From Minisyncoccota bacterium (lineage in GTDB: Bacteria; Patescibacteriota; Minisyncoccia; Phycocordibacterales; VMEP01): a DNA stretch of 64,000 nt. Below, piece after piece: positions 38,859 through 64,000 of the stretch. The stretch covers positions 4,884 to 68,883 of the forward strand of contig JBAZYZ010000001.1 of assembly GCA_041659085.1 (NCBI GenBank), written 5' to 3'. How positions within the stretch are numbered: the first letter of the stretch is position 1; every line of letters starts with the position of its first letter. The notes under the pieces were generated by a model. The model ran no database searches. It worked only from the letters and a program-made list of their open reading frames with translations, and was not told the DNA's origin. The translations under genes and the position numbers were made by a program.

Positions 38859-39911
38859 ATGAAAAAAGTCCTTATTTTAGGCATAAACGGCTTCATTGGG
38901 CACCATCTTTCAAAGCGCATTTTGGACACCACCGATTGGGAAGTTTACGGCATGGATATGCAAAGCGACCGGGTGTCGGAATTTTCTTCAAATCCAAGGT
39001 TCCATTTTTTTGAGGGTGATATTCTCGTAAACAAAGAGTGGATTGAGTACCACATAATCAAATGCGATGTTGTTTTGCCTCTTGTGGCCATCGCCACCCC
39101 CATGAGTTACGTGAAGTCTCCGCTAAAGACGTTTGAGCTTGATTTTGAGGCAAACTTGCCTATTGTACGCGCAGCAGTCAAATACAAGAAACGCCTGATT
39201 TTTCCGTCCACTTCCGAAGTGTACGGCATGAGCGATGACGCGGAATTTCATCCTTACGAATCAAATCTTGTATTGGGTCCGATAGATAAGCAGCGCTGGA
39301 TATATTCCTGTTCCAAACAAATGCTCGACCGCGTTATCTGGGCATATGGGCAGGAGCAGGGGTTTGATTTTACCTTGTTCCGTCCGTTCAACTGGATTGG
39401 AACCGGACTGGACCGGCTTTCCGCCAACAAGGAAGGCAACTCGCGCGTTATTACCCAATTTTTGGGAAACATTGTCCGCGGTCAGAGTATCCACCTGGTT
39501 GACGGCGGTTTGCAGAAGAGAGCTTTTACTTACATTGATGACGGTATTGACGCGCTTATGAAGATTATAGAGAACAAGGACAGCATCGCGACCGGCAAGA
39601 TTTACAACATTGGACACCCCGGCAACAACTGGTCCATAAAAGAACTTGCGGAGAAGATGATTGCTTTAGCGAATGAATATCCGGAATATCAAAAATATGC
39701 ACATGAGGCAAAAATTACAGACACTACCGCCGAAGGATATTACGGTAAGGGTTACCAAGATGTAAAAAATCGCGTGCCTTTTATCGAAAATACCAAGGGT
39801 GAACTTGGATGGGAGCCGAAGGTCGGGATGGAAGATGCCCTGCGCATGATTTTTGACGGTTATCGCAATCAAGTAGAGGAAGCGAGAGGGCTTGCTGATC
39901 TCGGTGTTTAA
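38859..39911 (+). CDS. UDP-glucuronic acid oxidative decarboxylase, ArnA C-terminal (dehydrogenase) domain homologue (forms UDP-4-keto-pentose)
   Basis: long colinear similarity to the E. coli ArnA decarboxylase domain recalled from memory: 'VLILGINGFIGHHL', 'HFFEGDI', 'EWIEYHIIKCDVVLPLVAIATP', 'FELDFEANL', 'FPSTSEVYGM', 'RWIYSCSKQMLDRVIWAYG', 'FTLFRPFNWIG'. Confidence 0.85.
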   Translation: MKKVLILGINGFIGHHLSKRILDTTDWEVYGMDMQSDRVSEFSSNPRFHFFEGDILVNKEWIEYHIIKCDVVLPLVAIATPMSYVKSPLKTFELDFEANLPIVRAAVKYKKRLIFPSTSEVYGMSDDAEFHPYESNLVLGPIDKQRWIYSCSKQMLDRVIWAYGQEQGFDFTLFRPFNWIGTGLDRLSANKEGNSRVITQFLGNIVRGQSIHLVDGGLQKRAFTYIDDGIDALMKIIENKDSIATGKIYNIGHPGNNWSIKELAEKMIALANEYPEYQKYAHEAKITDTTAEGYYGKGYQDVKNRVPFIENTKGELGWEPKVGMEDALRMIFDGYRNQVEEARGLADLGV

Positions 39912-39932
39912 TTTTTTCACCTCTTAATATTT

Positions 39933-41132
39933 ATGGCACAGCCAAAACGCATACTATTTTTTTCTTTGACCTACTATCCTTTTATTGGCGGAGCGGAGGT
40001 GGCCATAAAAGAAGTTACGGACCGTATCCCGGAAGAGAAATACAGTTTTGACATGATTACGCTCCGTTTTAACAGCGATCTGCCCCGGTTTGAGAGGTTT
40101 GGTAGCATAGATATTTTTCGTATTGGTTTCGGACAAAAAGGCGCCAAGATACAGGATTTCAATAAATTCCCGTTGTTTATAATGAAATATTTGTATCCGT
40201 TCTGGGCTTTGGCGGCAGCCGTTGTCCTCCATAGGCGAAAACCGTATGATGCCATTGCGACGGTCATGACTAGCTATGCTTCTTTTGCGGCGCTTTTCTT
40301 TAAGTTTTTATTCCCGGGAGTTCCTTATATTGTGCGTCTGGACGACGGCGACCCGTTTGAACATTATCGCAAGAAAGCAAGAATCACAGGCCCTCTTTTT
40401 GGGAAACTTTTTACCAAAGCGGATTTTGCGGTTACCGCCTCGACGTATCTTTCAAAAATGGCCAGGGAAATGGGATATAAAAAAGAAATCGCCATTGTGC
40501 CCAACGGAGTAAACGCCGAGCTTTTTTCAAAAGAGTATTCTGCGGAAGAACTTAATAAGCTTAAGAAAAAGCTCGGCAAAAAAGATGACGATTTTTATCT
40601 TATAACCACGTCGCGATTGGTCAAGAAGAATGCCTCTGATGACGTTATCAGGGCAATGCCGCTCTTGCCTCAAAATGTTAAATTTTTGATACTTGGCGTT
40701 GGTCCGGACGAAGGAATACTACATGAGCTTGCCGGTAACTTAAACGTGTCTGACCGGGTTATATTCCTTGGACAGATAGGGCGCGATGAAATCCCTAAAT
40801 ACTTGAAGATATCGGATATTTTCATTCGCCCTTCTCTTTCGGAGGGATTCGGCATTTCATTCGTTGAAGCGATGATTGCGGGGTTGCCTGTCATCGCGAC
40901 TTCGGTCGGCGGTATCACCGATTTTTTGGTTGATAAAGAAACTGGATTATTTTGCGAAGTCCGGAGTCCGGCGAGCATAGCGGAAAAAGTTAAGTTAATT
41001 ATTTCCAGTCCGGATTTAAGAGAACACATCGTGAAGACTGGCGCGCGCATGGCCCGCGAGCGGTATGATTGGAATTTGGTAGCCAAAATGATGAAAGAAA
41101 GTGTTTTTGACAGGGTGTTTAATGAAGAATAA
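39933..41132 (+). CDS. glycosyltransferase family 4
   Basis: 'RPSLSEGFGISFVEAMIAGLPVIATSVGGITDFLVDKETGLF' GT4 C-terminal motif. Confidence 0.8.
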   Translation: MAQPKRILFFSLTYYPFIGGAEVAIKEVTDRIPEEKYSFDMITLRFNSDLPRFERFGSIDIFRIGFGQKGAKIQDFNKFPLFIMKYLYPFWALAAAVVLHRRKPYDAIATVMTSYASFAALFFKFLFPGVPYIVRLDDGDPFEHYRKKARITGPLFGKLFTKADFAVTASTYLSKMAREMGYKKEIAIVPNGVNAELFSKEYSAEELNKLKKKLGKKDDDFYLITTSRLVKKNASDDVIRAMPLLPQNVKFLILGVGPDEGILHELAGNLNVSDRVIFLGQIGRDEIPKYLKISDIFIRPSLSEGFGISFVEAMIAGLPVIATSVGGITDFLVDKETGLFCEVRSPASIAEKVKLIISSPDLREHIVKTGARMARERYDWNLVAKMMKESVFDRVFNEE

Positions 41133-41135
41133 AAC

Positions 41136-42239
41136 ATGAAAATCCTAATCGCGACCGGCATATATCCGCCGTCAATCGGTGGGCCGGCGACATATTCCAA
41201 GATACTTTTTGACGAGCTGCCGAAGCGGGGGATTGGCGCTGCGGTGTTTTCTTTTGACGAAGTCAGGCATTTGCCGAAAGTAATCAGCCATATCGCTTAT
41301 TTTTTCAAAGTTCTGGCGCACGGAGTTTCGTGCGACATTATTTATGCTCAGGATCCAATCTCTGTCGGTTTGCCGGCGCTTTTCGCCGCAAAAATTTTGA
41401 GAAAAAGGTTTTTCCTGAAAGTGGTCGGCGATTATGCCTGGGAACAGGGCGCCCAGCGCTTCGGGGTCACCGATTTGTTGGACGAGTTTTCAAAAGAGCC
41501 GTTATCGGGCTATTCCGCCCCGGTGCGGTTTTTACGCAAGGCGGAATCTTTTGTGGCCCGTAGAGCCGAGAGGGTGATAGTGCCGAGCAGATACTTGAAA
41601 AAAATTGTTACTAGGTGGGGGGTCCCGGAAGAAAGAATTTGTGTAATTTATAATGCCCTTGAGGGGGTTGCCGAGCCGGGCAATGAAGAGCATCCGAAGA
41701 TTCTTTTGAGCGGGAAATCGGTTGTTTCTGCCGGCAGACTGGTTCCGTGGAAAGGATTCCTGTCTTTGGTTGAGACGATGATTGAACTCACGAAAAAATT
41801 TCCTGATCTGAAACTCTATATCATCGGTGACGGTCCGGAACGCGAGACGATAGAGAGGAGAATAAAGCAACTGGAACTTGGCCGAAACGTTCATTTGGTC
41901 GGCGGCGTTCCGCAGAAAATGCTTTTTGAATACATAAGAGCGGGGAGTATTTTCGCTCTCAATACCGGCTACGAGGGATTTTCACACCAGCTTTTGGAGG
42001 TTATGGCGCTTGGAGTGCCGCTTGTGACAACGAACGTCGGCGGCAATCCGGAGATTGTAAGAGAAGGGGAGAATGGTCTCTTGGTTCCGTACGACGACAA
42101 GCGCGCGCTTGCCCAAGCTATTGAAAAAATGCTTCGCGACGAAGATTTTGCCGCGAAATGCGCCGCTTCGGGCAAGAGTACCGCCGCTTTGTTCACAAAG
42201 GAGAGAATGGTAGGCGATTTGGTCAAAATACTTGCATGA
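41136..42239 (+). CDS. glycosyltransferase family 4
   Basis: 'GYEGFSHQLLEVMALGVPLVTTNVGGNPEIVREGENGLLV'. Confidence 0.8.
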   Translation: MKILIATGIYPPSIGGPATYSKILFDELPKRGIGAAVFSFDEVRHLPKVISHIAYFFKVLAHGVSCDIIYAQDPISVGLPALFAAKILRKRFFLKVVGDYAWEQGAQRFGVTDLLDEFSKEPLSGYSAPVRFLRKAESFVARRAERVIVPSRYLKKIVTRWGVPEERICVIYNALEGVAEPGNEEHPKILLSGKSVVSAGRLVPWKGFLSLVETMIELTKKFPDLKLYIIGDGPERETIERRIKQLELGRNVHLVGGVPQKMLFEYIRAGSIFALNTGYEGFSHQLLEVMALGVPLVTTNVGGNPEIVREGENGLLVPYDDKRALAQAIEKMLRDEDFAAKCAASGKSTAALFTKERMVGDLVKILA

Positions 42240-43348
42240 AAGTTTTAATGATTTCAACCGACAGGAAAATATTGGAAGAAGGAAGCGCTGTTCGGGCGCG
42301 TATGGTTTTATATGGGACGATTTGTGATGAACTTCATATAATTCTGGCTTCTGTCGGCGGTAGAAAAGAGACAGCATCAATCTCCGGAAATGTTTTTGTG
42401 CATCCTACGGCCTCTCTATGCGCCGCGTTTTCCAGACTGTCTTTATTTTTGTCATCAAACCTTATTTCTGCGGATCTGGTTACCGCGCAGGATCCTTTTG
42501 AGACCGGTTTTGCCGCTTGGTACATGTCAAAAAGGGTTGGTGCCAGGCTCGAGATTCAAATCCATACCGATTTTTTGAGCCCGTATTTTGGGCGGGGATC
42601 ATTTATAAATAAAATCCGCGTTTTAATCGCAGGAATTGTTTTGCCCAGAGCTGACGGAATTCGTGTCGTATCTGAACGTATCGCGAATTCACTCGGTACT
42701 TTGCGCTTGTTACCGGGCGCCAATATTACGGTTCTCCCCATTTACGTTGATATTGAAAAAATCAGGAATTCCCAAGTGATTTCCGATTTGCGCAAAAAAT
42801 ACCCGCAGTTTGATTTTATGATACTGATGACCTCACGCCTCACGAAAGAAAAAAACATTAGTCTGGCCATTGAGGCAATGCGCGAGATCATAAATAGGCA
42901 TCCCAAGGCCGGGCTTGTTATAGTCGGTTCAGGCCCTGAAGAAGTGGAACTTAAGCTGCTTGCTAAAAAATACAATCTGCAACCCAGTATTGTTTTTGAG
43001 TCATGGTCTGATGATGTCATCTCATATATGAAAACCGCGGACTGTTTTCTGTTAACTTCAAATTATGAAGGGTTCGGGCTCTCTCTTGTTGAAGCAGCCG
43101 CATCCGATTGCCCCATTATTTCAACGGAGGTGGGTATCATTGGCGAGCTTTTGCGTCCCGAGGAGGATATCTTGGCTTGCCCGGTTGGCGACGCCGGCTG
43201 TATCTTGGACAGGTTGGAACGCCTTATGAATTCTCCCGGTCTCGCCCACCAACTTTCTTTAAAAGCCCAATCTTCGTTTAAGCCACTTATAATGAGCAAG
43301 GAGGATTATTTAAAGAAGTTACGCACGGCTTGGGAAAAGTGTTTTTAG
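42236..43348 (+). CDS. glycosyltransferase family 4
   Basis: ATGA overlap with the upstream stop; 'SNYEGFGLSLVEAAASDCPIISTEVGIIGELL'. Confidence 0.75.
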   Translation: MKVLMISTDRKILEEGSAVRARMVLYGTICDELHIILASVGGRKETASISGNVFVHPTASLCAAFSRLSLFLSSNLISADLVTAQDPFETGFAAWYMSKRVGARLEIQIHTDFLSPYFGRGSFINKIRVLIAGIVLPRADGIRVVSERIANSLGTLRLLPGANITVLPIYVDIEKIRNSQVISDLRKKYPQFDFMILMTSRLTKEKNISLAIEAMREIINRHPKAGLVIVGSGPEEVELKLLAKKYNLQPSIVFESWSDDVISYMKTADCFLLTSNYEGFGLSLVEAAASDCPIISTEVGIIGELLRPEEDILACPVGDAGCILDRLERLMNSPGLAHQLSLKAQSSFKPLIMSKEDYLKKLRTAWEKCF

Positions 43349-43392
43349 TTTGTTATACTACCCGGGCTTATAAGGGTTTGTTTAGATGCTAT

Positions 43393-44403
43393 ATGCCAAA
43401 AACCGCAAAAAAATACAAAAAGATTTTAGTGACAGGGACGGCCGGTTTTATCGGATTTCACCTTGCCAAGGAGCTGCTTAGAGACAAGGACTGCGAGGTT
43501 GTTGGCATCGACAGCATAACCGACTATTACGATGTCCGTATGAAGCAAAAACGTAATGAGGTTTTGAAAAAATACTCCAATTACACATTCTATAAAGTTA
43601 ACCTGGCTGATTATAAAAAACTTGAAAATATAATCAAAAAAGAGAAGCCGGAGGCTATAATCCATCTGGCGGCCCAGGCAGGAGTCAGGTATTCTCTTAC
43701 CAACCCGTGGGCTTACGAACAGTCAAACTATTTAGGGACACTCAATATTTTTGAGGCATCGAAAAATTTCGGCATCAAACGTGTGCTGTTTGCTTCCTCA
43801 AGTTCGGTTTACGGTTCCAACAAAAAAGTTCCATTTAGTGAGAAAGACATAGTTGACCACCCTATTTCAATTTATGCCGCATCCAAAAAGGCCAACGAAG
43901 TTCTTGCCCATTCATACCACCATCTTTACGGCACAGAAACTGCCGGCATGAGATTCTTTACAGTCTATGGCGAATATGGCCGGCCGGACTTGGCTCTTTT
44001 CAAGTTCACTAAAAATATTCTGCTTGATAAGCCTATTGATGTCTATAACGGCGGCAAGATGATGAGGGACTTTACGTATGTTGACGATATTGTTGCCGGG
44101 ATTATCGGGATACTGAACAAGAGGGATTTAAAGTACGAGATTTACAATTTGGGAGGCGACAACCCCGTGTCTCTTATGGGGTTCATAAGACTGATTGAAA
44201 AATTTTTGGGAAAGAAAGCTAAAATCAATTTTATGCCGCTTCAGCCGGGGGATGTGACAAAAACGATGGCGGATATATCAAAAGCCAAAAAAGAAATAGG
44301 ATTTGAACCAAAAACGCGGATAGAGGATGGTACCGAGAAATTCATCCGCTGGTTTCTGGAGAATAAGAACTGGCTTCTTAAGCTGGAAGACCCCAAGCAG
44401 TAG
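43393..44403 (+). CDS. NAD-dependent epimerase/dehydratase (UDP-glucuronate/UDP-sugar 4-epimerase-like)
   Basis: 'ILVTGTAGFIGFHLAKELL'; 'YAASKKANE' Y-x3-K; extended SDR length. Confidence 0.75.
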   Translation: MPKTAKKYKKILVTGTAGFIGFHLAKELLRDKDCEVVGIDSITDYYDVRMKQKRNEVLKKYSNYTFYKVNLADYKKLENIIKKEKPEAIIHLAAQAGVRYSLTNPWAYEQSNYLGTLNIFEASKNFGIKRVLFASSSSVYGSNKKVPFSEKDIVDHPISIYAASKKANEVLAHSYHHLYGTETAGMRFFTVYGEYGRPDLALFKFTKNILLDKPIDVYNGGKMMRDFTYVDDIVAGIIGILNKRDLKYEIYNLGGDNPVSLMGFIRLIEKFLGKKAKINFMPLQPGDVTKTMADISKAKKEIGFEPKTRIEDGTEKFIRWFLENKNWLLKLEDPKQ

Positions 44404-44461
44404 GTTTTCTAAGGGAAATGCCGGTTTGGCAAAAACGTTTGATTTAATTACAATAGCCCCC

Positions 44462-45304
44462 ATGGATAAAAATAAAAAAATTGGTTTTATCGGTCAGGGA
44501 TATATAGGCAAAAACTACGCCGACGATTTTGAGAAACGCGGCTATTCGGTTGTGCGCTATGCTTTAGAAGAACCTCATATTTCAAACAAAGAGAAGATCG
44601 CGGAATGTGACATTGTGTTTATCGCCGTGCCGACCCCGACAACTCCGGAAGGATTTGACGACCATATCGTTGACGAGGCCATTAATCTTGTTGGCGCTGG
44701 CAAAATTGCCGTGATTAAGTCCACGGTTCTTCCGGGCACTACGGAGAAACTTCAAAGGGCGCATAGCGGTGTCTTGGTATTAAATTCGCCGGAATTTCTT
44801 TCGGAAGCGACAGCGGCGCATGATGCGGCTCATCCGGCGCAAAATATTATCGGCATTCCCGAGGACACGGCCGGGCATCGCGAAGCCGCGGAGCTTGTCT
44901 TGTCTATTTTGCCGGAAACACAGAGTTCGCTCGTGTGTAAAAGCGCCGAATCCGAGCTTTTCAAGTACGCGCATAACATGAGCGGCTATGTGCAGATTGT
45001 GCTGTTTAATATTATTTATGATTTGGCGCAAAAATTAGGCTGTGACTGGGAGCCTATTCAGAAAGCGATTGAAGCGGACCCGCTTATTTCCAACCGATAC
45101 GCGCGGCCGATTCACAAAAGCGGAAGGGGCGCAGGAGGTCACTGTTTTATAAAAGATTTTGAAGCTTTTTCGAGCCTTTATCACAGCAAGATTGCTGACC
45201 CGCTCGGGGACAAGGTAATGGCCGCTTTGAGGGAGAAAAATATTGATTTGCTGAAAAAGAGCGGCAAAGATTTGGATTTATTGAAAGGAGTTTATGGCAA
45301 TTAG
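44462..45304 (+). CDS. UDP-glucose/GDP-mannose dehydrogenase family protein (short form, 280 aa)
   Basis: N-terminal 'KIGFIGQGYIGKNYA' Rossmann motif; 'GRGAGGHCFIKDFEAF' resembling the UGDH catalytic Cys motif GFGGSCFPKD. Confidence 0.55.
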   Translation: MDKNKKIGFIGQGYIGKNYADDFEKRGYSVVRYALEEPHISNKEKIAECDIVFIAVPTPTTPEGFDDHIVDEAINLVGAGKIAVIKSTVLPGTTEKLQRAHSGVLVLNSPEFLSEATAAHDAAHPAQNIIGIPEDTAGHREAAELVLSILPETQSSLVCKSAESELFKYAHNMSGYVQIVLFNIIYDLAQKLGCDWEPIQKAIEADPLISNRYARPIHKSGRGAGGHCFIKDFEAFSSLYHSKIADPLGDKVMAALREKNIDLLKKSGKDLDLLKGVYGN

Positions 45305-46349
45305 ATTATTAATCATTACGCAAAAAGTCGATAGGAATGATCCTATATTGGGATTTTTTCACAGGTGGATAGAAGAATTTTCAAAGAGTTGCGAAAAAAT
45401 AACGGTAATTTGTTTGGGGGAAGGCGAGTACAGCCTGCCGGGTAATATAAAAGTTTTATCTCTGGGAAAAGAAGGAGGTGTGTCTGGCTTCGTATACCTG
45501 TTTCGTTTTTATAAATATATTTTCGAGGAGCGCAAAAATTATGATGTTGTTTTTGTGCACATGAATCAGGAGTACGTTTTACTGGGCGGGCTACCCTGGC
45601 AATTTATGGGAAAGAAAATAATGATGTGGAGAAACCATCCGGGTGGGGGTTTTTTAACGGATATGGCTGTGTTTTTGTCCAACAAGGTTTTCTGCACTTC
45701 AAATCAATCATATACTGCGCGTTTCAAGAAAACACAAATCATGCCGGTTGGTATAGACACATCATTTTTTACCGATAAAAAGGGTGAAAGAATTAAAAAT
45801 TCCCTACTTATTCTCGGCAGAATTGCCCCGGTAAAAAAACAGGAACTTATTATTGACGCGCTTAAAATATTGCGCGAGAAAGGAACCTCTTTTACTGCCC
45901 ATTTTATTGGGGACGCTCTTCCAAAGGACTCTGATTATTATGATATGCTCCAAAAGAAGGCGTCCGAGGCTAGCATGTCGGAATCGGTTTCTTTTAAGAA
46001 GTCTGTTTCAAACATGGAGACACCGGATATTTACAATAAGTTTGAAATATTTATCAATGCCACGCCAAGCGGCAGTTTGGACAAAACAATTTTTGAGGCA
46101 ATGGCCTGCGGGGCGTTACCCATGACTTCCAATAAAAGTCTCATTGGGGTTATTGACCAGCGGTCTATTTTTGAAGAAGACAACGCCAATGATCTGGCGG
46201 AAAAGATAAAAGAGTTATTTATTCTGAATGACGAGGAGAAAAATATTTACCGCATAAAGAACCGCGATTTTGTTGTTGACGATCATTCCCTGAAGAGTCT
46301 TGTGGAAAAAGTTGTTTTATACTGCGAAGAGAATGATTTACAAAAATAA
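45294..46349 (+). CDS. glycosyltransferase (GT4/GT1-like)
   Basis: C-terminal 'FINATPSGSLDKTIFEAMACGALPMTS' GT-B fold motif. Confidence 0.65.
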   Translation: MAIRLLIITQKVDRNDPILGFFHRWIEEFSKSCEKITVICLGEGEYSLPGNIKVLSLGKEGGVSGFVYLFRFYKYIFEERKNYDVVFVHMNQEYVLLGGLPWQFMGKKIMMWRNHPGGGFLTDMAVFLSNKVFCTSNQSYTARFKKTQIMPVGIDTSFFTDKKGERIKNSLLILGRIAPVKKQELIIDALKILREKGTSFTAHFIGDALPKDSDYYDMLQKKASEASMSESVSFKKSVSNMETPDIYNKFEIFINATPSGSLDKTIFEAMACGALPMTSNKSLIGVIDQRSIFEEDNANDLAEKIKELFILNDEEKNIYRIKNRDFVVDDHSLKSLVEKVVLYCEENDLQK

Positions 46350-46989
46350 AAAGGAACTGATAGGAACCCTGGTAAACTCAAAGGATACAATTCTTGATGT
46401 TGGGTTTTGGGGGCAGGGTCAGACTATTGATAATCCGAAATGGCCGCATCGTTTTATTTTGGAGAAAGCTGGAGGCGCATATACGTATGGTTTAGACGTG
46501 GATTTTGACGAAGGAAAGCTGGGGAAGATAAATGACATTTCTCATTACAAAAAGGGAAGTGCGGAAGATTTCCAAATAAGCCTAAAATTTGATGTTATTT
46601 TTGCTGCTGACCTAATTGAGCATTTGTCCAACCCCGGATTATTTCTCAAGTCTTGTCGCGATAATCTAAAGGATGGCGGCAGTTTGGTTATTACAACCCC
46701 GAATTGTTTTAGCCTTTTCAATATTGCCGAAAAACTGACAAAAACCGAGCCTACGGTTAATTCCGACCATACTATGTATTTCAATTCAAAAACACTAAGA
46801 ACTCTGTTCGCGAAAAATGACTGGAGTATTGTTTCGATGGATTACTTATACAGTCTTGATACAGGCTACGTGGAAAGTTGGAAAAAGAAATTTTTGAATG
46901 CTATTTACCACGCACTTTCTTGGTATACGCCCAAATATATTGAAACATTGGTTATTGTGGCTAAGCCGGATAATCTGGCTAAGGGGTAG
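46333..46989 (+). CDS. class I SAM-dependent methyltransferase
   Basis: 'ILDVGFWGQGQ' motif I variant; 'DVIFAADLIEHLSNP'; 'GGSLVITTPN'. Confidence 0.65.
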   Translation: MIYKNKKELIGTLVNSKDTILDVGFWGQGQTIDNPKWPHRFILEKAGGAYTYGLDVDFDEGKLGKINDISHYKKGSAEDFQISLKFDVIFAADLIEHLSNPGLFLKSCRDNLKDGGSLVITTPNCFSLFNIAEKLTKTEPTVNSDHTMYFNSKTLRTLFAKNDWSIVSMDYLYSLDTGYVESWKKKFLNAIYHALSWYTPKYIETLVIVAKPDNLAKG

Positions 46990-49258: not shown

Positions 49259-49321
49259 ACATTTCCTCCGCTCCTATTTTTAGTTTTTGCCGTATTTCTC
49301 CGCTTCTGATAGAATTCTGCC

Positions 49322-56721: not shown

Positions 56722-57449
56722 ACAATAAAAAAATCTATGATGACAATTGGGCAGATTGGGTTGATATGAAAATTTATGGTCCGGCCAGCCGCTGGCTACG
56801 CGGGCTAATAGGAGAACATCTCTGTTTGATTAATACGGAAAATATAAGTTCCGTTTTGGATGTCGGGTCGGGAGAGGGGACCATTACATATTACATAGCT
56901 AAGCATTTTCCGGAAGCTGAGGTGACTGGCATAGATTTTTCCCAGTCTGGCATCAATTGTGCCTCCGAAGCTTATAATTTGCCGAATCTAGATTTTATCC
57001 AAGATGAAGACTCCACTCATCTGAAAAATAAATATGATTTAGTCGCAGCTTACGAAGTTTTAGAGCATGTTGAGGACTGGGAAGGTTTGTTGGGGAGGAT
57101 GGCAGACGCGTCGAATAAATATATAATGCTGTCGTTTCCGGTTGGAAGAATGAGGTCGTTTGAGAAGATAGTAGGTCATTTGAGAAACTTTAAAAAAGGA
57201 GAAGTGGAGAATTTTTTGAGCGGAAAAGGTTTCAGGCCGGTTAATATTTTTTATGCGGGATTCCCATTCTATAACCCTGTTTACAGAGAGCTTTGTAATT
57301 TGACAAACTCCGCCGGGAATTCGTTTACCAAGGGTAAATACGGCTGGGGTCAGAAAATAACTGCATCTGTTTTTTATTTTTTATTCAGGTATTGTTCAAC
57401 GAAATATTTTTTAGGCAACCAGTTTTGCGGCTTATTTGAGCGTATATGA
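56703..57449 (+). CDS. class I SAM-dependent methyltransferase
   Basis: 'VLDVGSGEGTITYYIA' motif I; 'YDLVAAYEVLEHVED'. Confidence 0.7.
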   Translation: MSKNKIDNKKIYDDNWADWVDMKIYGPASRWLRGLIGEHLCLINTENISSVLDVGSGEGTITYYIAKHFPEAEVTGIDFSQSGINCASEAYNLPNLDFIQDEDSTHLKNKYDLVAAYEVLEHVEDWEGLLGRMADASNKYIMLSFPVGRMRSFEKIVGHLRNFKKGEVENFLSGKGFRPVNIFYAGFPFYNPVYRELCNLTNSAGNSFTKGKYGWGQKITASVFYFLFRYCSTKYFLGNQFCGLFERI

Positions 57450-58321
57450 CAATAACACCGGAGATCTACAAACGTGTTCTGGATATTTACGGCAATTATT
57501 ATGAGCCCATTACTGGCATATTACCCCAGAAGTTAACAGACGACGTTCTCTCTTTTAAAAAACCAATCGAGCAGATTGCTGTCATAGAAAGATATTCGGG
57601 CTCCATTAAAGGTAAGAAATTATTGGAGGTCGGATCAGGCTTTGGAATATTTGTTGTTACCGCAAGGCAGAACGGTATTGAGGCTTACGGTGTAGAGCCC
57701 GATTCCGAGGGATTTAACGGATCATATGAATTATCCCAGGAGATACTCAGTTTGAACGAAATTGACCCAGGGGTGATAACAAGCGGTATCGGAGAGGCGT
57801 TACCGCTCCCGGACCATTCGTTTGACGTCGTTTACTCAACAAATGTCCTAGAGCATGTCTCAAACCCGAGAGCTTTTTTGGGAGAGGCTATTCGCGTCTG
57901 TAAACCCGGGGGGTTTATACAAATTGTTGTCCCTAACTATGGTTCGTTTTATGACGGACATTATTCATGTTTCTACGTTCCTTATCAGCCCAAATGGTTG
58001 TGGAAAATATTTATTAAGTTATTCCACAAAAAAGACATCTCGTATATTGATACCCTGCGCACGGAAATAAATTATTTCGCGATGCTAAAATGGCTGAAGC
58101 CGTACGTAAGGAGCGGGGCAGTATCTATTTTAGGTATGGGCGAAGATATTTTTAGAGAGAGGATGGATAGTGTAGATTTTTCCGCTTGGGCCGGGCTGGA
58201 AAAAGTAAAAAACTGGCTAGCTCTTGTCCATAAGTTCAGGATTACAGAATTAGTAATATGGTTGCTCTTGGCTACAAAATCGTACTCTCCCTTGATTGTT
58301 ACTATCCGCAAGAATAAATAG
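57446..58321 (+). CDS. class I SAM-dependent methyltransferase
   Basis: 'LLEVGSGFGIFVV'; 'FDVVYSTNVLEHV'; 'GGFIQIVVPN'. Confidence 0.7.
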   Translation: MTITPEIYKRVLDIYGNYYEPITGILPQKLTDDVLSFKKPIEQIAVIERYSGSIKGKKLLEVGSGFGIFVVTARQNGIEAYGVEPDSEGFNGSYELSQEILSLNEIDPGVITSGIGEALPLPDHSFDVVYSTNVLEHVSNPRAFLGEAIRVCKPGGFIQIVVPNYGSFYDGHYSCFYVPYQPKWLWKIFIKLFHKKDISYIDTLRTEINYFAMLKWLKPYVRSGAVSILGMGEDIFRERMDSVDFSAWAGLEKVKNWLALVHKFRITELVIWLLLATKSYSPLIVTIRKNK

Positions 58322-58335: not shown

Positions 58336-59298
58336 ATGGATAAAAATATTAAATGGCAAAAGACAGGCAAGATTCTTAAGATTTTATTTTCACTTTTTCT
58401 GTTTGTGTGCGTCATCCTCGTCTTAAAGATAAATCTGCCCTCCGTACTTGTCTTCATAAAGAATATTCCGGTTGTTTATATTTTTTCAGCGCTGTTGGTT
58501 TATTTGCTCGCCGTTTTTGTGGCATCAATTAAATGGAGGTTGTTCCTCCCCAATTATTCAATAAGGCGAATTCTAAGATATACATTTGTCGGACAATTCT
58601 ACTCTGTTATTTTACCCGGGCAGTTTGTTGGGGAGGCGGCTAAGGCCTATCGCCTTGGGGCCGTGAACAAAAATTTGGAAGAGGTTGGCGCGTCCGTCTT
58701 ATTGGATAAGGCCACAGGTATATTGGGCATACTTATCGTCGCTTTTGTAGGAATTGTCTTTACTGGATCGTTTCTTCCTCCAGCCTTGCTCTATATTATC
58801 TTGTTCGGATTAATTATATGTGTATTGGTTTTGTTATTGCTCCGCAGGGAAGAAGTATATGTGTTTGTACACCGAAAGATATTGTCAGCAGAAGACAGAC
58901 ATCTTGCGCTGAATAGTTTTTTGCGTTTCATTCGTATTTTTGTTGAACATTGGCACGAATATTCAAGAAGGACAGGCAGACTATTGCTTAGCGTATTTGC
59001 CGGGGTAATATACCAGCTCTTGATAGTTGCTTTAATTGCCATTCTGGCTTCAGGGTTAAATATTTATCTTTCGTTTTTTGACTGGTCGTGGATATTCGGC
59101 ATTGTGTCTGTCTCAGTTTTCATTCCGGTTACAATAGGGGGAATAGGCTTGAGAGAGGGGGTGTTTGTTGGTCTTCTGTCCCTGCTTCATGTGTCGCCGG
59201 AATTGGCGGTATCGCTCTCCCTAGCTTCCTTTGCTTTTCAACTACTGGGGGCTTTGATTGGCGGAACATTTGAGGCGATGGAGTTAAAAAACCGTTAG
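58336..59298 (+). CDS. flippase-like membrane protein (UPF0104/YbhN/MprF-N-terminal-like)
   Basis: 8 TM helices; 'RILRYTFVGQFYSVILPGQFVGEAAKAYRLG' typical of lysylphosphatidylglycerol-synthase-TM-region-like proteins. Confidence 0.65.
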   Translation: MDKNIKWQKTGKILKILFSLFLFVCVILVLKINLPSVLVFIKNIPVVYIFSALLVYLLAVFVASIKWRLFLPNYSIRRILRYTFVGQFYSVILPGQFVGEAAKAYRLGAVNKNLEEVGASVLLDKATGILGILIVAFVGIVFTGSFLPPALLYIILFGLIICVLVLLLLRREEVYVFVHRKILSAEDRHLALNSFLRFIRIFVEHWHEYSRRTGRLLLSVFAGVIYQLLIVALIAILASGLNIYLSFFDWSWIFGIVSVSVFIPVTIGGIGLREGVFVGLLSLLHVSPELAVSLSLASFAFQLLGALIGGTFEAMELKNR

Positions 59299-59313
59299 AA
59301 ATCCAATTTAAAA

Positions 59314-61041
59314 ATGGAGAAAATTACCAAAATAATTCAGGAATACCGCTTTGTTTTGCTTCTAGCCGTTTTTTGTGGCGCTGTCTATGTGGCACCCCAT
59401 TTGTTTTTTAAGATTACCCTTGGGAACTCCTTCCACGGCATTGAACTTACACCAAGGGATGCGGAGACACATTACCTGTCAATGCTGAATGAGGTCAAAC
59501 AGGGATACCTTACCCATAGCAGCACATATTTGTATGAATATAAGGATAGTAAAGTGTCCCCGATTGAATATTCCGAGACATTTTACGGGACGATAATAAA
59601 ACTTTTCAATCTTGGAGCTCCTGGATTTTATTTATTTTGCGAGTTCTTTTTTCCGGTAGTTATATTTTTACTTTGGTATTATTTTTCCTTGCTTGTTACC
59701 AAAAACAAAAGGAGCGCTATTTTGTCAGCTCTTTTTTTAATGTTCGGTACCTACATTTTAAGCAACGTAAGCATCATAAAACAATTTGATATTTTATTTT
59801 GGAAGACGGCAAACATACCTCTCCTTGCCTACGGCAGAATTATAAATCCATTACTTACATTCCCATTCTTTTTTGCCGGTCTAATCTTCGCTTATAAGCT
59901 GTTCTCTGAGAACACAAAAAAAATGGCGGTCTTTTCCGGCATAGCTCTGGGAATAATGTTTTATGTCTATTTTTACTTTTGGACATATTTTTTAGCCCTG
60001 AGTTTTTTAATGCTGGTGTTCGGAGTGTCGAAAAAAGAGTGGCAATTGGTGAAAAATATTTCTCTAAGTATTTCTATATCTCTGCTCATTGGTTCATATT
60101 TTATTGTCAGTATGATAAAGACGGTCGTTAGTTCAGTTGGGGTTCAATCCGGAGGCTCATTATCTCCATATGTTTTTGCCTTAAGCCATAATCCGTCCCT
60201 GCCGTCCTTGGTGGTTTTGGGAGTGGCGTTATTTTCTTTTTTTATTTATTTGAGGAGGAGAAAGGGGATACCATTGGAGAGAGGGGATGCATTCATCTTT
60301 CTCCTGTTATCTACTGCCGTAGTTGTTGTTAATCAGCAGATAATAACTGGACGGTCTGTTGAACCGGGACACTTTCATTGGTATGCGAATGTGCCGGTTT
60401 TCTTTTTAACTGTAAGTTATATCATTGTCGACTTGTTGGGAAAAATAAGAATAAGATATCTTGGCAAAACGTTATTTATAATTTTATGTTTATATCTAAT
60501 CACGTTTGGCATAGGTACACAGGTTTCCGGATATAAACAGAGGTTTGATAATTTTTCTTATATTCAGAAATACGGAGCTGTCTTCGACTGGTTCAATAGG
60601 AATACGGAAAAAGAATCGGTTATTTTTGGCGGAAACGGATTTTCGGATCTCACTCCTGCATATACCCAAAATAATGTCTATTTTGCAGCTTACGGGGCTT
60701 ACTACCCGTCTAATCCGCTCGAACGCAGAATTCATACCGCATACATTTATTATTTCTTGGATAATAAAAAGGAGGACATTTTGCAAAAGATTTATCCATC
60801 CTTAACTTCAAATGGCTGTGTCAGCGCCGGATGTGTTGATTCTGACATTTTTGCAAAAACTATGGCTAATTATGGAGAATTTTTAAAGACGCCATTTTAT
60901 GAAAATTTGAAAAAATATAGGGTAGACTATATGGTCTGGGACAAAAACACGAACCCTTCATGGAATTTGGATAAGTTTAGTTTCTTAAAACCAGTCTATA
61001 ATTATGATAATGTTCTGGTTTATAAAATTTTAAACAAATGA
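59314..61041 (+). CDS. large polytopic membrane protein with extracytoplasmic C-terminal domain; candidate GT-C glycosyltransferase/polymerase
   Basis: 575 aa; ~11 TM helices then ~170-aa soluble domain; no firm family motif. Confidence 0.55.
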   Translation: MEKITKIIQEYRFVLLLAVFCGAVYVAPHLFFKITLGNSFHGIELTPRDAETHYLSMLNEVKQGYLTHSSTYLYEYKDSKVSPIEYSETFYGTIIKLFNLGAPGFYLFCEFFFPVVIFLLWYYFSLLVTKNKRSAILSALFLMFGTYILSNVSIIKQFDILFWKTANIPLLAYGRIINPLLTFPFFFAGLIFAYKLFSENTKKMAVFSGIALGIMFYVYFYFWTYFLALSFLMLVFGVSKKEWQLVKNISLSISISLLIGSYFIVSMIKTVVSSVGVQSGGSLSPYVFALSHNPSLPSLVVLGVALFSFFIYLRRRKGIPLERGDAFIFLLLSTAVVVVNQQIITGRSVEPGHFHWYANVPVFFLTVSYIIVDLLGKIRIRYLGKTLFIILCLYLITFGIGTQVSGYKQRFDNFSYIQKYGAVFDWFNRNTEKESVIFGGNGFSDLTPAYTQNNVYFAAYGAYYPSNPLERRIHTAYIYYFLDNKKEDILQKIYPSLTSNGCVSAGCVDSDIFAKTMANYGEFLKTPFYENLKKYRVDYMVWDKNTNPSWNLDKFSFLKPVYNYDNVLVYKILNK

Positions 61042-62198
61042 TCGGCAAGCTCAATAACATTTATATCCTGATCCTCTGTTTCATCTACGCGATTTTTCGC
61101 GGGAAGGCGACACGCAAGGCGGTGAATCCGCGGAAGATTCTTATTCTCCAGATGGCAAAACTTGGGGATATGGTTTGCACTACACCCATGTTCCGGGCGG
61201 TAAAAGAAAAATATCCTAAGGCGAAACTGTATGTGGTCGGTAATTCAATCAATAAAGAAATTCTTCTTGGGAACAACGATGTGGACGAGTATATAGTATG
61301 GAACAAAAATAACTTTTGGGAATTGGTTAAGCGTTTACGCGGGGGAAAAATAGATTTCGCCTGTCAGACGGGGCCAATCTTTGATTTTCTGGCCATGTTT
61401 TATCTGGCCGGCATTCCATCCATAGCTACTCCGAAAATAGAAAATGGTTACTGTCCGTGGGAAACTAAGGCCTATAAACTCTTGCGACGATTCGCGACAC
61501 TTATACCGCACAGGATGGGTTCATATGCCCCGAGGGAATATTTACGCCTCCTTGAGCCCATAGACATATATACTGACAATACGACAAAGTATCTGGCCTT
61601 TTCCAAAGAAGCCGGAAAAAGGGTTGAAGATATTTTTATTGAGAACGGAGTCGGGAAAGAAGAGTTTTTGTTTTGTATTTCTCCCGCTGCCGGAAATAAG
61701 ATAAAGCAATGGCCGGCTGGGAGATTTGCGAAAGTGGCAGACCATATTTATGGAAAATACGAGACGAAAATATTTATCATTGGCGCCAAGAATGATCGGA
61801 CCGAGGTTCTTGAGATGGTTTATAACTTGAATAAGGAAACAAAAGTGATAAACCTTTTGGATAAATTAAGCCTAGAAGAGCTGAAGGCTCTTATGTCAAG
61901 AATGAATATGTTCGTAAGCGTTGATACCGGCCCGATTTATATTGCTGAAGCTTTTGGCATACCGACGGTTGATATAACAGGCCCCATAGACGAGAATGAA
62001 CAGCCGCCGATTAGCAAGCTAAACCGAATTGTTAATATAAAAAACAGGAAAAAGCCGGAGCTTTATGTAATGAATGCGAGAGTATATGATGAGGCTGAGG
62101 CGAGAAGGCAGACAGAGGAAATAACGATGGAAATGGTCACAGATGAAATTGATGATTTATACGGTCATATAAAGAAAAATGATAAAAAAATTAATTAA
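61038..62198 (+). CDS. glycosyltransferase family 9 (ADP-heptose:LPS heptosyltransferase-like)
   Basis: 'KILILQMAKLGDMVCTTPMFRAVKEKYPKAKLYVVG' GT9 N-terminal signature; '...CISPAAGNKIKQWPAGRFA...'. Confidence 0.7.
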   Translation: MIGKLNNIYILILCFIYAIFRGKATRKAVNPRKILILQMAKLGDMVCTTPMFRAVKEKYPKAKLYVVGNSINKEILLGNNDVDEYIVWNKNNFWELVKRLRGGKIDFACQTGPIFDFLAMFYLAGIPSIATPKIENGYCPWETKAYKLLRRFATLIPHRMGSYAPREYLRLLEPIDIYTDNTTKYLAFSKEAGKRVEDIFIENGVGKEEFLFCISPAAGNKIKQWPAGRFAKVADHIYGKYETKIFIIGAKNDRTEVLEMVYNLNKETKVINLLDKLSLEELKALMSRMNMFVSVDTGPIYIAEAFGIPTVDITGPIDENEQPPISKLNRIVNIKNRKKPELYVMNARVYDEAEARRQTEEITMEMVTDEIDDLYGHIKKNDKKIN

Positions 62199-62874
62199 GA
62201 AAGGTTTGTTAACTGCCGGTCTTGAGATTAAAAGAAAATTAAAAGGAGGCCCCGACCCAATACATCTGTGGGAAACGGAAGAGCATTTTAATTCTTTATA
62301 CAGCCAGGTTAACACGCACACTCTGGTCAGTCGGGTTCGTTGCTTCATACTCTATAAGTTTTTTAGCCATACGAGGACACTTCCTGGGGACGTGGCGGAG
62401 GTTGGCGTTTATCGCGGCGGTACGGCAAAGTTTCTGGCTTTGCTTAATGGAGAATATCAGTTAAATAAAAATATTTACCTTTTCGACACTTTTGGCGGAA
62501 TGCCTGAAACTTCCGCGGAGAAGGACCTTCATAAGGAAGGTGATTTCTCAGACACCTCATTAGAAGGCGTTTTGGCTTATCTAAAAGGATTACAGAGGAT
62601 TTCTCTTCATAGGGGATTGTTTCCTGGGACAGCCGGTCCGGTAAAAGATAAGAAATTTTCATTTGTCCATCTTGACGTTGATATATACAAATCAGTTCTT
62701 GATTGTTGCGATTTTTTCTATCCCAGGATGGTACAGGGAGGAATTATTATTTTTGACGATTACGGTTTTGTCTCTTGTCCGGGGGCCAAGCTTGCGGTTG
62801 ATGAATTTTTTAAAGACAAGAAAGAGACACCTGTTTATTTGCAGAGCGGCCAGTGTCTTATTATAAAACTATGA
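62179..62874 (+). CDS. TylF/MycF-family (macrocin O-methyltransferase-like) SAM-dependent O-methyltransferase
   Basis: 'GDVAEVGVYRGGTAKFLA'; 'LFDTFGGMPE'; 'VHLDVDIYKSVLDCCDFFYPRMVQGGIIIFDDYG'. Confidence 0.7.
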   Translation: MIKKLIKKGLLTAGLEIKRKLKGGPDPIHLWETEEHFNSLYSQVNTHTLVSRVRCFILYKFFSHTRTLPGDVAEVGVYRGGTAKFLALLNGEYQLNKNIYLFDTFGGMPETSAEKDLHKEGDFSDTSLEGVLAYLKGLQRISLHRGLFPGTAGPVKDKKFSFVHLDVDIYKSVLDCCDFFYPRMVQGGIIIFDDYGFVSCPGAKLAVDEFFKDKKETPVYLQSGQCLIIKL

Positions 62875-63773
62875 GCATGGCTAAACTTGATTGCATTGTT
62901 TGCGGAGCCCGCGGCCATGAAATTACGATAAATAATCTTCCGATGCTTATTTGTGATTCCTGCGGGCTGTTTTGGCGCGCCAGTTTTGATTTGCCGGAAA
63001 ATTTTTATGAAACGAGGGAGTTTGAGACGGAAAAAAGGGGTAAAATAGAGGCCCGTTATGCCAACTCGATTGGGAGAATTGAAACATTGCGAAGATATGC
63101 TGATGTGAATAATTTATGCGATGTGGGATGCGGAGAAGGGATTTTTCTGAAAGCCTTAAATGATTTGGGGTATAAAAATGTTTTTGGTTTAGAACCTAGC
63201 CTGGAGGCGCGTGATTTTGCCGTACTCAATAATTTAAAGATAGTTGCAGGCGGTATAGAAAATCTTAGCGAGTCATTTTTTACCAAGAACGATGTCCATA
63301 CTGTTACAATATTCCACGTTGTTGAACATCTGAAAGACCCGTATGCATCGCTTAAACTGATATACGACAACCTCGGTAAGGGCGACAAACTGGCTATTGA
63401 AACGCCGGATATGGACAGCTATGCCCTAAAGAAAAGTAATTATAAAAATGAACTCATAAATCCGGAGCATCTTCACTACTTTAACAAGACCAACTTGAAA
63501 AAGCTTCTTGAGAAAAGCGGTTTTACGGTTATTGCTTCCGGCAACAGGGATTTCAACGAAAAGAATATGAGCATTCGGGAATCTTTGTCCAGACTCGGAT
63601 TTATTAATGTTTCGCCAGACAAAAAAGACTCTGGCGCTAAATATGGAGAGGCAAGTTTGGGTGTTAAGGATGGTAATGATAGTATATTCAGAACAATAGT
63701 CAGAAGGACTCTTTCTTCCGTGGTGGGTTTTTTGGGACGCGGTAATTACCTTTGGATAGTTGCTCAAAAATAA
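62871..63773 (+). CDS. SAM-dependent methyltransferase with N-terminal zinc-ribbon (CxxC...CxxC)
   Basis: ATGA overlap; 'CIVCG...CDSCG'; 'LCDVGCGEGIFL' motif I. Confidence 0.7.
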   Translation: MSMAKLDCIVCGARGHEITINNLPMLICDSCGLFWRASFDLPENFYETREFETEKRGKIEARYANSIGRIETLRRYADVNNLCDVGCGEGIFLKALNDLGYKNVFGLEPSLEARDFAVLNNLKIVAGGIENLSESFFTKNDVHTVTIFHVVEHLKDPYASLKLIYDNLGKGDKLAIETPDMDSYALKKSNYKNELINPEHLHYFNKTNLKKLLEKSGFTVIASGNRDFNEKNMSIRESLSRLGFINVSPDKKDSGAKYGEASLGVKDGNDSIFRTIVRRTLSSVVGFLGRGNYLWIVAQK

Positions 63774-63795
63774 TGTTTACTCTAAAAATAAAAAA

Positions 63796-64000
63796 ATGAG
63801 AGAACCGAAAAGTTACACAAGAGAAGTCTTAAAAAATGTTTTGCCTAGGTATTGCAGAGGGAAGACCGTTGATGTCGGCGCCGGCCGGGCAAAGTACAAA
63901 AATTACATAAAGAAATACGCGGAAAGTTACATGACAGTAGACGACCTCTCCTCTGATTACCAGTTTGATGCTAAGGAGACAAAACCGGATGTAATTTCCA
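63796..64000 (+). CDS. SAM-dependent methyltransferase, N-terminal fragment (3' end outside window)
   Basis: ATG at 63796; 'KTVDVGAGRAKY' motif I; open to the window end. Confidence 0.5.
   Translation, partial: MREPKSYTREVLKNVLPRYCRGKTVDVGAGRAKYKNYIKKYAESYMTVDDLSSDYQFDAKETKPDVIS

Follow-up and report, generated by a model that had tools for sequence, protein, structure and literature searches.

A single-strand block of glycan-related genes

The window analysed here is a 64,000-nucleotide stretch of contig JBAZYZ010000001.1 from a Minisyncoccota bacterium (assembly GCA_041659085.1, positions 4,884 to 68,883), and our subject is the glycan-related gene locus at window positions 38859-64000. 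A first-pass annotation of the sequence had described this region as a block of more than 25 kb on a single strand, with glycan-related genes joined by ATGA junctions. The open reading frame (ORF) listing and a junction analysis bore this out. The block consists of 25 consecutive genes, all on the + strand, and at least six ATGA-type 4-nt overlaps are present given the likeliest starts (42236, 47709, 55573, 57446, 61038 and 62871). A gap of 374 nt lies upstream of 38859, and the internal gaps are all 63 nt or shorter. The GC content is about 0.46 at 38-45 kb versus about 0.39-0.42 at 46-64 kb. Families were assigned by Pfam and NCBIfam scans of the locus proteins, and nearly every assignment of the first-pass annotation was upheld. 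The genes are as follows, with S-adenosylmethionine abbreviated as SAM, nucleoside diphosphate as NDP and short-chain dehydrogenase/reductase as SDR.

38859-39911, +: stand-alone ArnA-C-type UDP-glucuronic acid (UDP-GlcA) decarboxylase (NF008872, 617.5 bits)
39933-41132, +: GT4a (Glycos_transf_1, 140 bits; no NCBIfam equivalog cutoff reached)
41136-42239, +: GT4b (Glycos_transf_1, 134 bits)
42236-43348, +: GT4c (Glycos_transf_1, 118 bits; ORF from 42158, likely start 42236 with ATGA overlap)
43330-44403, +: SDR-family NDP-sugar epimerase/dehydratase (Epimerase, 192 bits; GDP_Man_Dehyd, 197 bits)
44462-45304, +: short dehydrogenase of the UDP-glucose dehydrogenase (UGDH) family, 280 amino acids (ORF from 44327)
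45294-46349, +: GT4d, GT4-like, first gene of the conserved low-GC core (Glycos_transf_1, 54 bits)
46333-46989, +: MT1, class I SAM methyltransferase (ORF from 46300; Methyltransf_23, 41 bits)
47035-47712, +: MT2, class I SAM methyltransferase (ORF from 47032; assigned by Pfam)
47709-48845, +: GT4e, core member (Glycos_transf_1, 91 bits)
48878-49258, +: GtrA-family small membrane protein, putative polyprenyl-phosphate-sugar flippase (GtrA_DPMS_TM, PF04138, 78.6 bits)
49322-50263, +: GtrB/ArnC/PgfS-like GT2 (Glycos_transf_2, PF00535, 120.9 bits)
50268-52157, +: AsnB-family glutamine-dependent amidotransferase (Asn_synthase, 338 bits)
52169-52741, +: MT3, class I methyltransferase (ORF from 52109; Methyltransf_11, 40 bits)
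52751-54727, +: MP658, membrane protein with GT-C fold (predicted)
54737-55576, +: MT4, class I methyltransferase (Methyltransf_12, 49 bits)
55573-56721, +: GT4f (ORF from 55546; Glycos_transf_1, 134 bits)
56703-57449, +: MT5, class I methyltransferase (Methyltransf_12, 56 bits)
57446-58321, +: MT6, class I methyltransferase (Methyltransf_11, 60.6 bits)
58336-59298, +: LPG_synthase_TM protein, MprF-type flippase-like (PF03706, 117.6 bits; TIGR00374, 52.7 bits, cutoff 43.2)
59314-61041, +: MP575, membrane protein with GT-C fold (predicted)
61038-62198, +: GT9, heptosyltransferase family (Glyco_transf_9, PF01075, 81.7 bits, cutoff 22)
62179-62874, +: TylF-family O-methyltransferase (PF05711, 81 bits, cutoff 23)
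62871-63773, +: MT8, methyltransferase with N-terminal CxxC...CxxC zinc ribbon (ORF from 62853; Methyltransf_23, 78.6 bits)
63797-64000, +: MT9, 5' part of a methyltransferase cut by the window edge

The window thus contains seven GT-B enzymes, namely six GT4 (ORFs from 39933, 41136, 42158, 45294, 47709 and 55546) and the GT9 at 61038, in agreement with the at least seven GT4/GT-B enzymes counted previously. An overlapping contig, L026, starts at window position 61208 and extends the sequence by 2.4 kb, to about 66.4 kb. It contains MT9 in full (216 amino acids), followed past the window by a GT4 of 422 amino acids, which is the seventh GT4 and eighth GT-B enzyme, and then by a KpsF/GutQ-type sugar-phosphate isomerase.

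Two orphan membrane proteins with a predicted GT-C fold

The proteins encoded at 52751-54727 and 59314-61041 had been singled out as orphan polytopic proteins suited to the role of GT-C transferases. MP658 and MP575 indeed matched no Pfam family at E ≤0.01 and no NCBIfam model. MP575 is identical to a protein deposited at NCBI as hypothetical protein WC835_00330 (Candidatus Paceibacterota bacterium), and MP658 combines 13 hydrophobic segments with a globular domain at its C terminus. AlphaFold2 models built from homologues reached a predicted local distance difference test score (pLDDT) of 85.6 and a predicted template modelling score (pTM) of 0.87 for MP658, and a pLDDT of 80.3 and a pTM of 0.81 for MP575. 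In both cases the predicted fold matches those of solved GT-C enzymes, and structure prediction thereby shows a GT-C fold for both orphans, in agreement with the role first proposed for them. ArnT is among the structural neighbours, and AftA is an equal or better structural match.

At the sequence level, profile searches of both families against PDB found no relative, and neither protein matched PF13231 or PF02366 (ArnT/PMT_2, GT83/GT39) or PF09586 (YfhO). Membership in the oligosaccharyltransferases (STT3/PglB/AglB, GT66) was rejected on the grounds that the WWDYG motif is missing from both sequences. The two proteins are distant paralogues of each other (hhalign probability 98%, E 2e-13, 471 columns). 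Asp123 of MP658 (D123) is invariant in 16 family sequences and lies in the loop after the first core transmembrane (TM) helix. Glu51 of MP575 (E51), likewise in this loop, is acidic in 92% of 143 family sequences, which share a median 25% identity with MP575, and the two positions align in hhalign. D123 and E51 would therewith stand where the catalytic acid of a GT-C is expected, in a loop that should be the first extracytoplasmic one by analogy with GT-C topology.

An exhaustive profile search for the MP575 family gave 3629 clusters (50% identity) at E ≤1e-3 and 1367 at E ≤1e-30, and typical members are likewise without a Pfam domain. A remote relative of MP658, P0016, carries DUF2298. Neither of these two predicted GT-C families, of which one counts thousands of members, is thus covered by a Pfam or NCBIfam model or has a solved relative. 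Both families also occur side by side, near GtrB-like genes, on a contig labelled as DPANN (L010, Candidatus Woesearchaeota contig JAGVYE010000028.1), where their presence would reflect either inter-domain transfer or mis-binning.

Connection of the GT-C proteins to a polyprenyl-phosphate-sugar module

The gtrA-gtrB-like pair reported at 48878-50263 was resolved into the GtrA protein at 48878-49258 and the GT2 at 49322-50263. The best NCBIfam matches of the GT2 were ArnC (216 bits, cutoff 529) and PgfS (186 bits, below cutoff), and the protein has two C-terminal TM segments. A GtrA protein, a GT2 with C-terminal TM helices and GT-C proteins are thus encoded together, as in Gtr-type systems.

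For comparison we assembled, among the matches listed in genome and metagenome scans, 30 independent loci, each 8 kb or longer and carrying either GT-C. A GtrB-like gene was found in the flanks of the GT-C in 22 of the 30, often directly upstream. Moreover, N-terminal domain fusions occur within the MP575 family, with a GT2 domain in five members and a GtrA domain in three (P0097, P0161 and P0064). Fusions, neighbourhood and architecture are three independent lines that tie MP658 and MP575 to the polyprenyl-phosphate-sugar module, the link that the first-pass annotation had drawn. The fusions and the adjacency to GtrB are indirect signs that the GT-Cs may transfer sugar from a donor linked to polyprenyl-P or -PP.

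Nine mutually divergent methyltransferases

The nine methyltransferases counted in the first-pass annotation were all recovered (ORFs 46300, 47032, 52109, 54737, 56703, 57446, the TylF-like enzyme at 62179, 62853 and the partial 63797-64000), including the zinc-ribbon enzyme, whose CxxC...CxxC motif is present in MT8. Taking into account that such enzymes might act on rRNA or protein, an objection that the annotation itself had raised, we scanned eight of them, MT9 not being among these, against NCBIfam. None reached the cutoff of an rRNA, tRNA or protein methyltransferase model, and the matches obtained were far under cutoff, as with UbiG (27-44 bits versus 103). These results support their assignment, from sequence, as generic small-molecule-type class I enzymes. 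They have no clear TM segments, except for one C-terminal hydrophobic stretch in MT6.

Pairwise identity among the methyltransferases does not exceed 37% over about 90 amino acids. Recent tandem duplication was rejected in view of this low identity over short stretches, and the mutual divergence therefore indicates nine lineages and no recent duplicates. Nine enzymes fall within 18 kb here, versus one methylase (31150-31860) in the rest of the window, the comparison covering the Pfam-scanned genes (23 ORFs) of the other 38 kb. Known methylated-glycan loci carry about 1-4 methyltransferases.

The density had been called unusual, and this holds for the number of enzymes; it does not hold as a peculiarity of this genome. 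Homologues of the window methyltransferases occur in 24 of the 30 loci, with 5-6 copies in the nearest relatives. The most widespread is the MT9-like family (19 members in 15 loci), and MT3 lies directly upstream of the GT-C in L002, L027, L034, L046, L049, L054 and L060. NDP-hexose C-methyltransferases and numerous B12-binding radical SAM enzymes are found in addition in other relatives. Judged from gene content, the whole locus family shares a high methyltransferase density. As methyltransferases and Leloir transferases are about equal in number, heavy O-methylation of the glycan is to be expected.

The B12-binding radical SAM enzymes form an amplification of their own beside MP575-family GT-Cs in other genomes of the Candidate Phyla Radiation (CPR), with 35 copies in 14 loci and up to 7 per locus (L037, L035, L009, L011, L050 and others). 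This window has none.

Nucleotide-sugar enzymes, amidotransferase and GT9

Concerning the enzymes of sugar supply, the decarboxylase at 38859-39911 gave the clearest assignment. Its score of 617.5 bits with NF008872, versus a cutoff of 294, identifies it as a UDP-4-keto-pentose/UDP-xylose synthase. It matched Burkholderia PbgP3 (PDB 3slg) with 555 bits and about 72% identity, and the C-terminal domain of Escherichia coli ArnA with about 417 bits. An orthologue was not found among the related loci listed, where the sole match was a weak 27% SDR in L058. Without a counterpart in the related loci, the decarboxylase is therefore an accessory gene outside the conserved machinery, and it was probably acquired horizontally from Proteobacteria.

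The UGDH-like dehydrogenase and the epimerase of the first-pass annotation were confirmed at the family level only. The 280-residue UGDH homologue keeps the catalytic-Cys motif GGHCFIKD (GGxCxxKD) and is without the entire C-terminal UDP-binding domain. An orthologue of the same length is found at the same position in L060 (2369-3211, 60% identity by blastp), and we therefore regard the protein as naturally short rather than as the product of a pseudogene. The SDR stayed below every NCBIfam equivalog cutoff and is a generic epimerase/dehydratase.

The AsnB amidotransferase, the GT9 and the flippase-like LPG_synthase_TM protein were all upheld by Pfam. AsnB scored 500.7 bits with TIGR01536 (cutoff 267) and 603 bits, below the cutoff of 817, with the XrtA/PEP-CTERM amidotransferase TIGR03108. 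It is present in 9 of the 30 related loci, mostly directly after GtrB. The best heptosyltransferase equivalogs gave 82-86 bits for the GT9, versus cutoffs of 135-467. The GT9 is found in 12 of the 30 loci, and its position directly downstream of a GT-C is conserved. Heptose-pathway genes were not found in the window; they occur in the related loci L007, L009, L011, L035 and L051.

The isomerase that follows the locus is a KpsF/GutQ (KdsD-like) arabinose-5-phosphate isomerase (L026 4616-5200, about window 65.8-66.4 kb). A KdsB/NeuA-like cytidylyltransferase was seen in a relative, the positions listed with the KdsD-like isomerase being L060 20517-21482 and L012 16297-17094. The two genes hint at a sugar resembling 3-deoxy-D-manno-octulosonic acid (Kdo), in a type of host thought to lack lipopolysaccharide (LPS).

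Conservation of the locus across Patescibacteria

Gene content across the 30 loci included a GtrB-like gene in 22, a methyltransferase homologue in 24, GT4 in 24, GT9 in 12 and AsnB in 9. The recurring core reads GT4, GtrA, GtrB, AsnB, methyltransferase, GT-C, GT9, further methyltransferases and GT4, and a collinear core was found in five independent Patescibacteria contigs (L060, L002, L029, L034 and L012). This synteny answers the question, raised with the first-pass annotation, of whether separate operons had merely been juxtaposed: the recurrence of the core across Patescibacteria means that it is one functional unit and therefore one locus.

The gene order of the window is kept over 17 genes in L060, which reads SDR, short UGDH, GT4, methyltransferase, GT4, GtrA, GtrB (81% identical), AsnB and MT3 (66%), followed by MP658 (59%), methyltransferase, MP575, GT9, TylF (63%), MT8 and GT4. 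It ends with a 603-residue protein, a KpsF-type SIS/CBS isomerase and a Wzx-type flippase on the opposite strand. L002 and L029 share most of this core order, and GtrB is 84% identical in L029. Among the individual genes, GT4d has orthologues in L002 and L060, MT2 in L002, L029 and L045, GT4e in more than 10 loci (34-62% identity), MT4 in L007, L027 and L029 (69-73% identity) and MT8 in 8 loci. In L058 and L059, as here, the LPG_synthase_TM gene directly precedes the MP575 orthologue. Wzx-type flippases occur in L002, L045, L047, L058 and L060, and Wzy_C ligase-like proteins in L002, L045 and L047.

Apart from the short UGDH, which has an orthologue in L060, none of the first six genes (38.8-45.3 kb) is clearly conserved in related loci, and the stretch of lower GC (0.39-0.42) is the one that makes up the conserved core. 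On this comparison, the locus is a conserved core joined to a strain-specific accessory module that includes the decarboxylase. The order GT4, GtrA, GtrB, AsnB, methyltransferase, GT-C, GT9 and further methyltransferases defines a conserved cassette open to experimental test.

A protein of about 600 amino acids with no Pfam match recurs at the end of such loci, between the last GT4 and KpsF (L060 18674-20485, L047 13788-15572, L030 and L038). It is absent from the contig of this window.

Other features of the window

One gene outside the locus may bear on it:

16258-17604, +: Bac_transf, candidate initiating phosphoglycosyltransferase (PF02397, 177.6 bits), 21 kb upstream of the locus

Its neighbours are a GT4 (14973-16280, - strand), an SDR and a PAP2 phosphatase. 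They belong to a second, small envelope/glycan cluster at 13789-19324, between the 5S and 16S rRNA genes, which comprises FtsW/RodA, GT4, Bac_transf, an SDR epimerase and PAP2; apart from its Bac_transf, no initiating transferase was seen in the window. A connection of this gene with the glycan locus is conjectural.

The rRNA genes are unlinked and unusually arranged, the 23S gene (8716-12368) being followed by tRNA-Ala/Met/Pro and 5S, with 16S (22115-23652) about 10 kb downstream; further positions listed for this region are 11553-12032 and 12474-12963. The 23S gene exceeds the model length by about 700 nt, and a group I intron was matched within it at 29 bits (E 1.2e-4), under the gathering score of 50. 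Elsewhere the window encodes mur ligases, FtsW, SecDF and surface proteins bearing lamin-tail and PKD domains; such features are in keeping with a CPR bacterium. At 34146-37491, just upstream of the locus, lie genes for a TrwB/TraG-like coupling-protein ATPase and for a surface protein of 480 amino acids that combines lamin-tail and PKD domains with a signal peptide and a C-terminal TM anchor.

A proposed pathway for a methylated surface glycan

We propose that the locus directs the formation of a cell-surface glycan, which would be assembled and O-methylated in the cytoplasm and then decorated on the outside by the GtrA/GtrB/GT-C module. Taken as an overall scheme, we consider this probable, with moderate confidence. 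The host setting is that of the Paceibacterota, members of the CPR with a single membrane.

In the proposed pathway, the short UGDH-like protein, the ArnA-C-type decarboxylase and the SDR would supply sugars derived from UDP-GlcA, including UDP-4-keto-pentose/UDP-xylose. The seven GT4 enzymes, one of them past the window edge, and the GT9 would join sugars into a lipid-carried oligosaccharide on the cytoplasmic side of the membrane, where the nine soluble SAM methyltransferases would O-methylate its residues. We place this methylation before export because SAM is present only in the cytoplasm. Export could then proceed by a Wzx-type flippase, as in the relatives, and/or by the MprF-type flippase-like protein.

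A second arm, the best supported part of the pathway, would begin with the GtrB-like GT2 loading a single sugar onto polyprenyl phosphate. Tailoring of this donor sugar, for example from uronic acid to uronamide or by methylation, might fall to AsnB and to MT3 and MT4, which adjoin the GT-C, as the strict conservation of these genes between GtrB and the GT-C would suggest; we put this step forward as speculation. GtrA would help to flip the lipid-linked sugar, and the paralogous MP658 and MP575 would pass it, at the outer face of the membrane, to the glycan or to a protein. Gene content, the GT-C fold of the models, the paralogy of the GT-Cs, synteny and fusions are what the analysis shows; the sugar identities, the order of the steps and the acceptor are given here as we infer them.

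Several results weigh against this pathway. Within 38859-64000 we found no phosphoglycosyltransferase, Wzx, Wzy or ABC exporter. As neither an exporter nor an initiating enzyme is present in the 25 kb, the route of assembly and export had to be borrowed from the relatives and from a gene 21 kb away. Only one GtrB is available for two GT-Cs. AsnB may be a housekeeping enzyme, as it passes the generic asparagine-synthase model TIGR01536. Among the locus enzymes, only the decarboxylase reaches an equivalog cutoff, and every other substrate is therefore a guess; that the methyltransferases act on sugars rather than on other substrates is likewise deduced. Finally, the numbers of promoter and terminator sites did not rise above those of shuffled controls and no site fell in an intergenic gap, so that these scans speak neither for nor against an operon.

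The serious alternative is protein glycosylation, in which the GT-Cs would transfer the GtrB-made polyprenyl-phosphate-sugar to Ser/Thr or Asn of surface proteins such as pilins or an S-layer, and the GT4, GT9 and methyltransferases would elaborate or build the attached glycan. Only the acceptor differs from that of the surface-glycan pathway. The streptococcal Pgf operon and the GtrB-PgtC2 pair share the architecture seen here and act outside the membrane (PMC12041528), PgfS is the second-best NCBIfam match of the GT2, and the frequent adjacency of the GT-C paralogues (L002, L006, L007, L010, L012 and L060) recalls Pmt1-Pmt2 heterodimers. However, in addition to the missing WWDYG motif, no MIR or YfhO domain was found in either GT-C, the polysaccharide-acting AftA is at least as good a structural match, and a search next to the locus gave no convincing Ser/Thr-rich acceptor. 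The Wzx and Wzy_C proteins of the relatives would suit a poly- or oligosaccharide pathway as well. Protein glycosylation therefore strikes us as possible, on the unlikely side.

The remaining explanations appear far weaker. The absence of an exporter from the 25 kb, together with nine soluble methyltransferases and many GT4 enzymes, would also fit a heavily O-methylated polysaccharide kept in the cytoplasm for storage or as a chaperone, on the lines of the mycobacterial methylglucose lipopolysaccharide and methylmannose polysaccharide (MGLP/MMP), an analogy drawn in the first-pass annotation. We abandoned it because of the membrane and export architecture of the locus. The core is built on membrane proteins (two GT-Cs, GtrA, the TM-anchored GtrB and the flippase-like protein), relatives' loci end with Wzx flippases, and the Pfam matches of the locus include no GT81 (GpgS), GH57 branching enzyme, acyltransferase, MMP hydrolase or ManT/MeT1/MeT3/MmpH set. 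The membrane and export components here, together with Wzx and Wzy_C in relatives, point to an exported surface glycan, and an MGLP/MMP-like product is very improbable.

The suggestion of ArnA/ArnC-type chemistry survives only for the decarboxylase, which is well over its ArnA-C-type cutoff. Together with the GT9 and the KdsD-like isomerase just past the window, it could speak for an Arn-like charge modification of lipid or envelope, or for an LPS-core-like (Kdo/heptose) glycolipid in a single-membrane cell; some relatives also have heptose-pathway genes, a KdsB/NeuA-like cytidylyltransferase and ArnE/F-like small transporters. The GT2 falls well below the ArnC cutoff, however, and the decarboxylase is not shared by the related loci. 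The Arn pathway itself was rejected since ArnB, ArnD, the formyltransferase and ArnE/F are missing from the locus, where Pfam gave no DegT, Formyl_trans, deacetylase or EamA/SMR match among the 25 genes; none of these Arn genes, and no lipid A genes, were seen in the window. We accordingly hold such a product to be improbable. That several unrelated operons simply lie side by side is hardly credible. The drop in GC content and the separable accessory and core modules would allow it, but the genes share one strand with short gaps and many overlaps, L060, L002 and L029 keep the core genes in collinear order, and even the short UGDH of the accessory part is kept at its position in L060.

A bolder extension of the surface-glycan pathway would be a Patescibacteria-wide, previously undescribed system in which the GT-C pair, possibly heteromeric with the MprF-type flippase, adds a lipid-linked sugar, amidated and/or methylated by AsnB and the neighbouring methyltransferases while on polyprenyl phosphate, to a nearly per-O-methylated, hydrophobic, LPS-core-like oligosaccharide. 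The LPS-core-type chemistry is represented here by the GT9, the KdsD-like isomerase and the ArnA-type pentose, in a one-membrane cell. We offer this extension tentatively, as one that is rather doubtful. If true, such a coat could be central to the attachment of episymbionts to their hosts or to phage evasion. The CPR account for a large part of the diversity of bacteria, their usual mode of life being attachment to other cells, and in full-text literature searches we found no paper on CPR/Patescibacteria surface glycans or methyltransferase loci.

As to its use, the locus predicts an unusually methylated glycan and provides targets for biochemistry, namely the donor specificity of GtrB, the acceptors of the GT-Cs and the regiochemistry of the methyltransferases. 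It should help in annotating thousands of 'hypothetical' membrane proteins, and methylated sugars could be sought in groundwater enrichments.

Comparison with known systems

The module at the centre of the locus resembles the three-component systems GtrA/GtrB/GtrC (O-antigen glucosylation), CsbB/GtcA/YfhO (teichoic-acid glycosylation), PgfS/PgfM1/PgfM2 and GtrB/PgtC2 (protein glycosylation) and the GT136 pentofuranose systems, in which a TM-anchored GT2, a GtrA-family protein and a polytopic GT-C are likewise encoded together (PMC12041528, PMC11127046). The streptococcal Pgf operon encodes the GT2 PgfS, the epimerase PgfE and two GT-Cs, PgfM1 and PgfM2, and proteins are glycosylated outside the membrane; it has, as here, two GT-Cs and an epimerase (PMC12041528). 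In contrast to all of these, the GT-Cs described here are not of the YfhO, PMT_2, GT136 or GtrC type, AsnB and one or two methyltransferases stand between GtrB and the GT-C, and the module is set among 8 GT-B enzymes and 9 methyltransferases in a CPR host.

The Arn system (PmrHFIJKLM), which modifies lipid A with L-Ara4N, shares with the locus an ArnA C-domain-type decarboxylase, an ArnC-like GT2 and the presence of ArnT among the structural neighbours of the GT-Cs. It differs in having ArnB, a formyltransferase domain, ArnD, ArnE/F and an ArnT-family sequence signature. Mycobacterial and corynebacterial assembly of lipoglycans and arabinogalactan uses the GT4 enzymes PimA/PimB, the GT2 Ppm1 and GT-C enzymes (PimE, Mpt, Aft, Emb). 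No sequence-level relationship to these was seen; the donor route is of the GtrB type here and proceeds from phosphoribosyl pyrophosphate (PRPP) and decaprenylphosphoryl arabinose (DPA) there, and no lipid-anchor enzymes were identified in the locus.

The loci for MGLP/MMP, for glycopeptidolipids, for O-antigen methyl caps (WbdD) and for TylF-type O-methylation of deoxysugars likewise place class I or TylF methyltransferases among glycosyltransferases. The present locus differs in its nine mutually divergent methyltransferases and in having no MGLP/MMP-specific enzymes. An AsnB amidotransferase together with a UDP-GlcA-related dehydrogenase recalls the WbpS/WbqG O-antigen loci, in which uronic acid is converted to uronamide. 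To our knowledge, the position of AsnB directly after GtrB has not been described for known systems.

Three-component glycosylation and methylated glycans are thus already known. What is new here are the two unmodelled, predicted GT-C families and the conserved GtrB-AsnB-methyltransferase-GT-C cassette, together with a GT9 and a KdsD-like isomerase in a one-membrane cell and a methyltransferase load well above that of known methylated-glycan loci.

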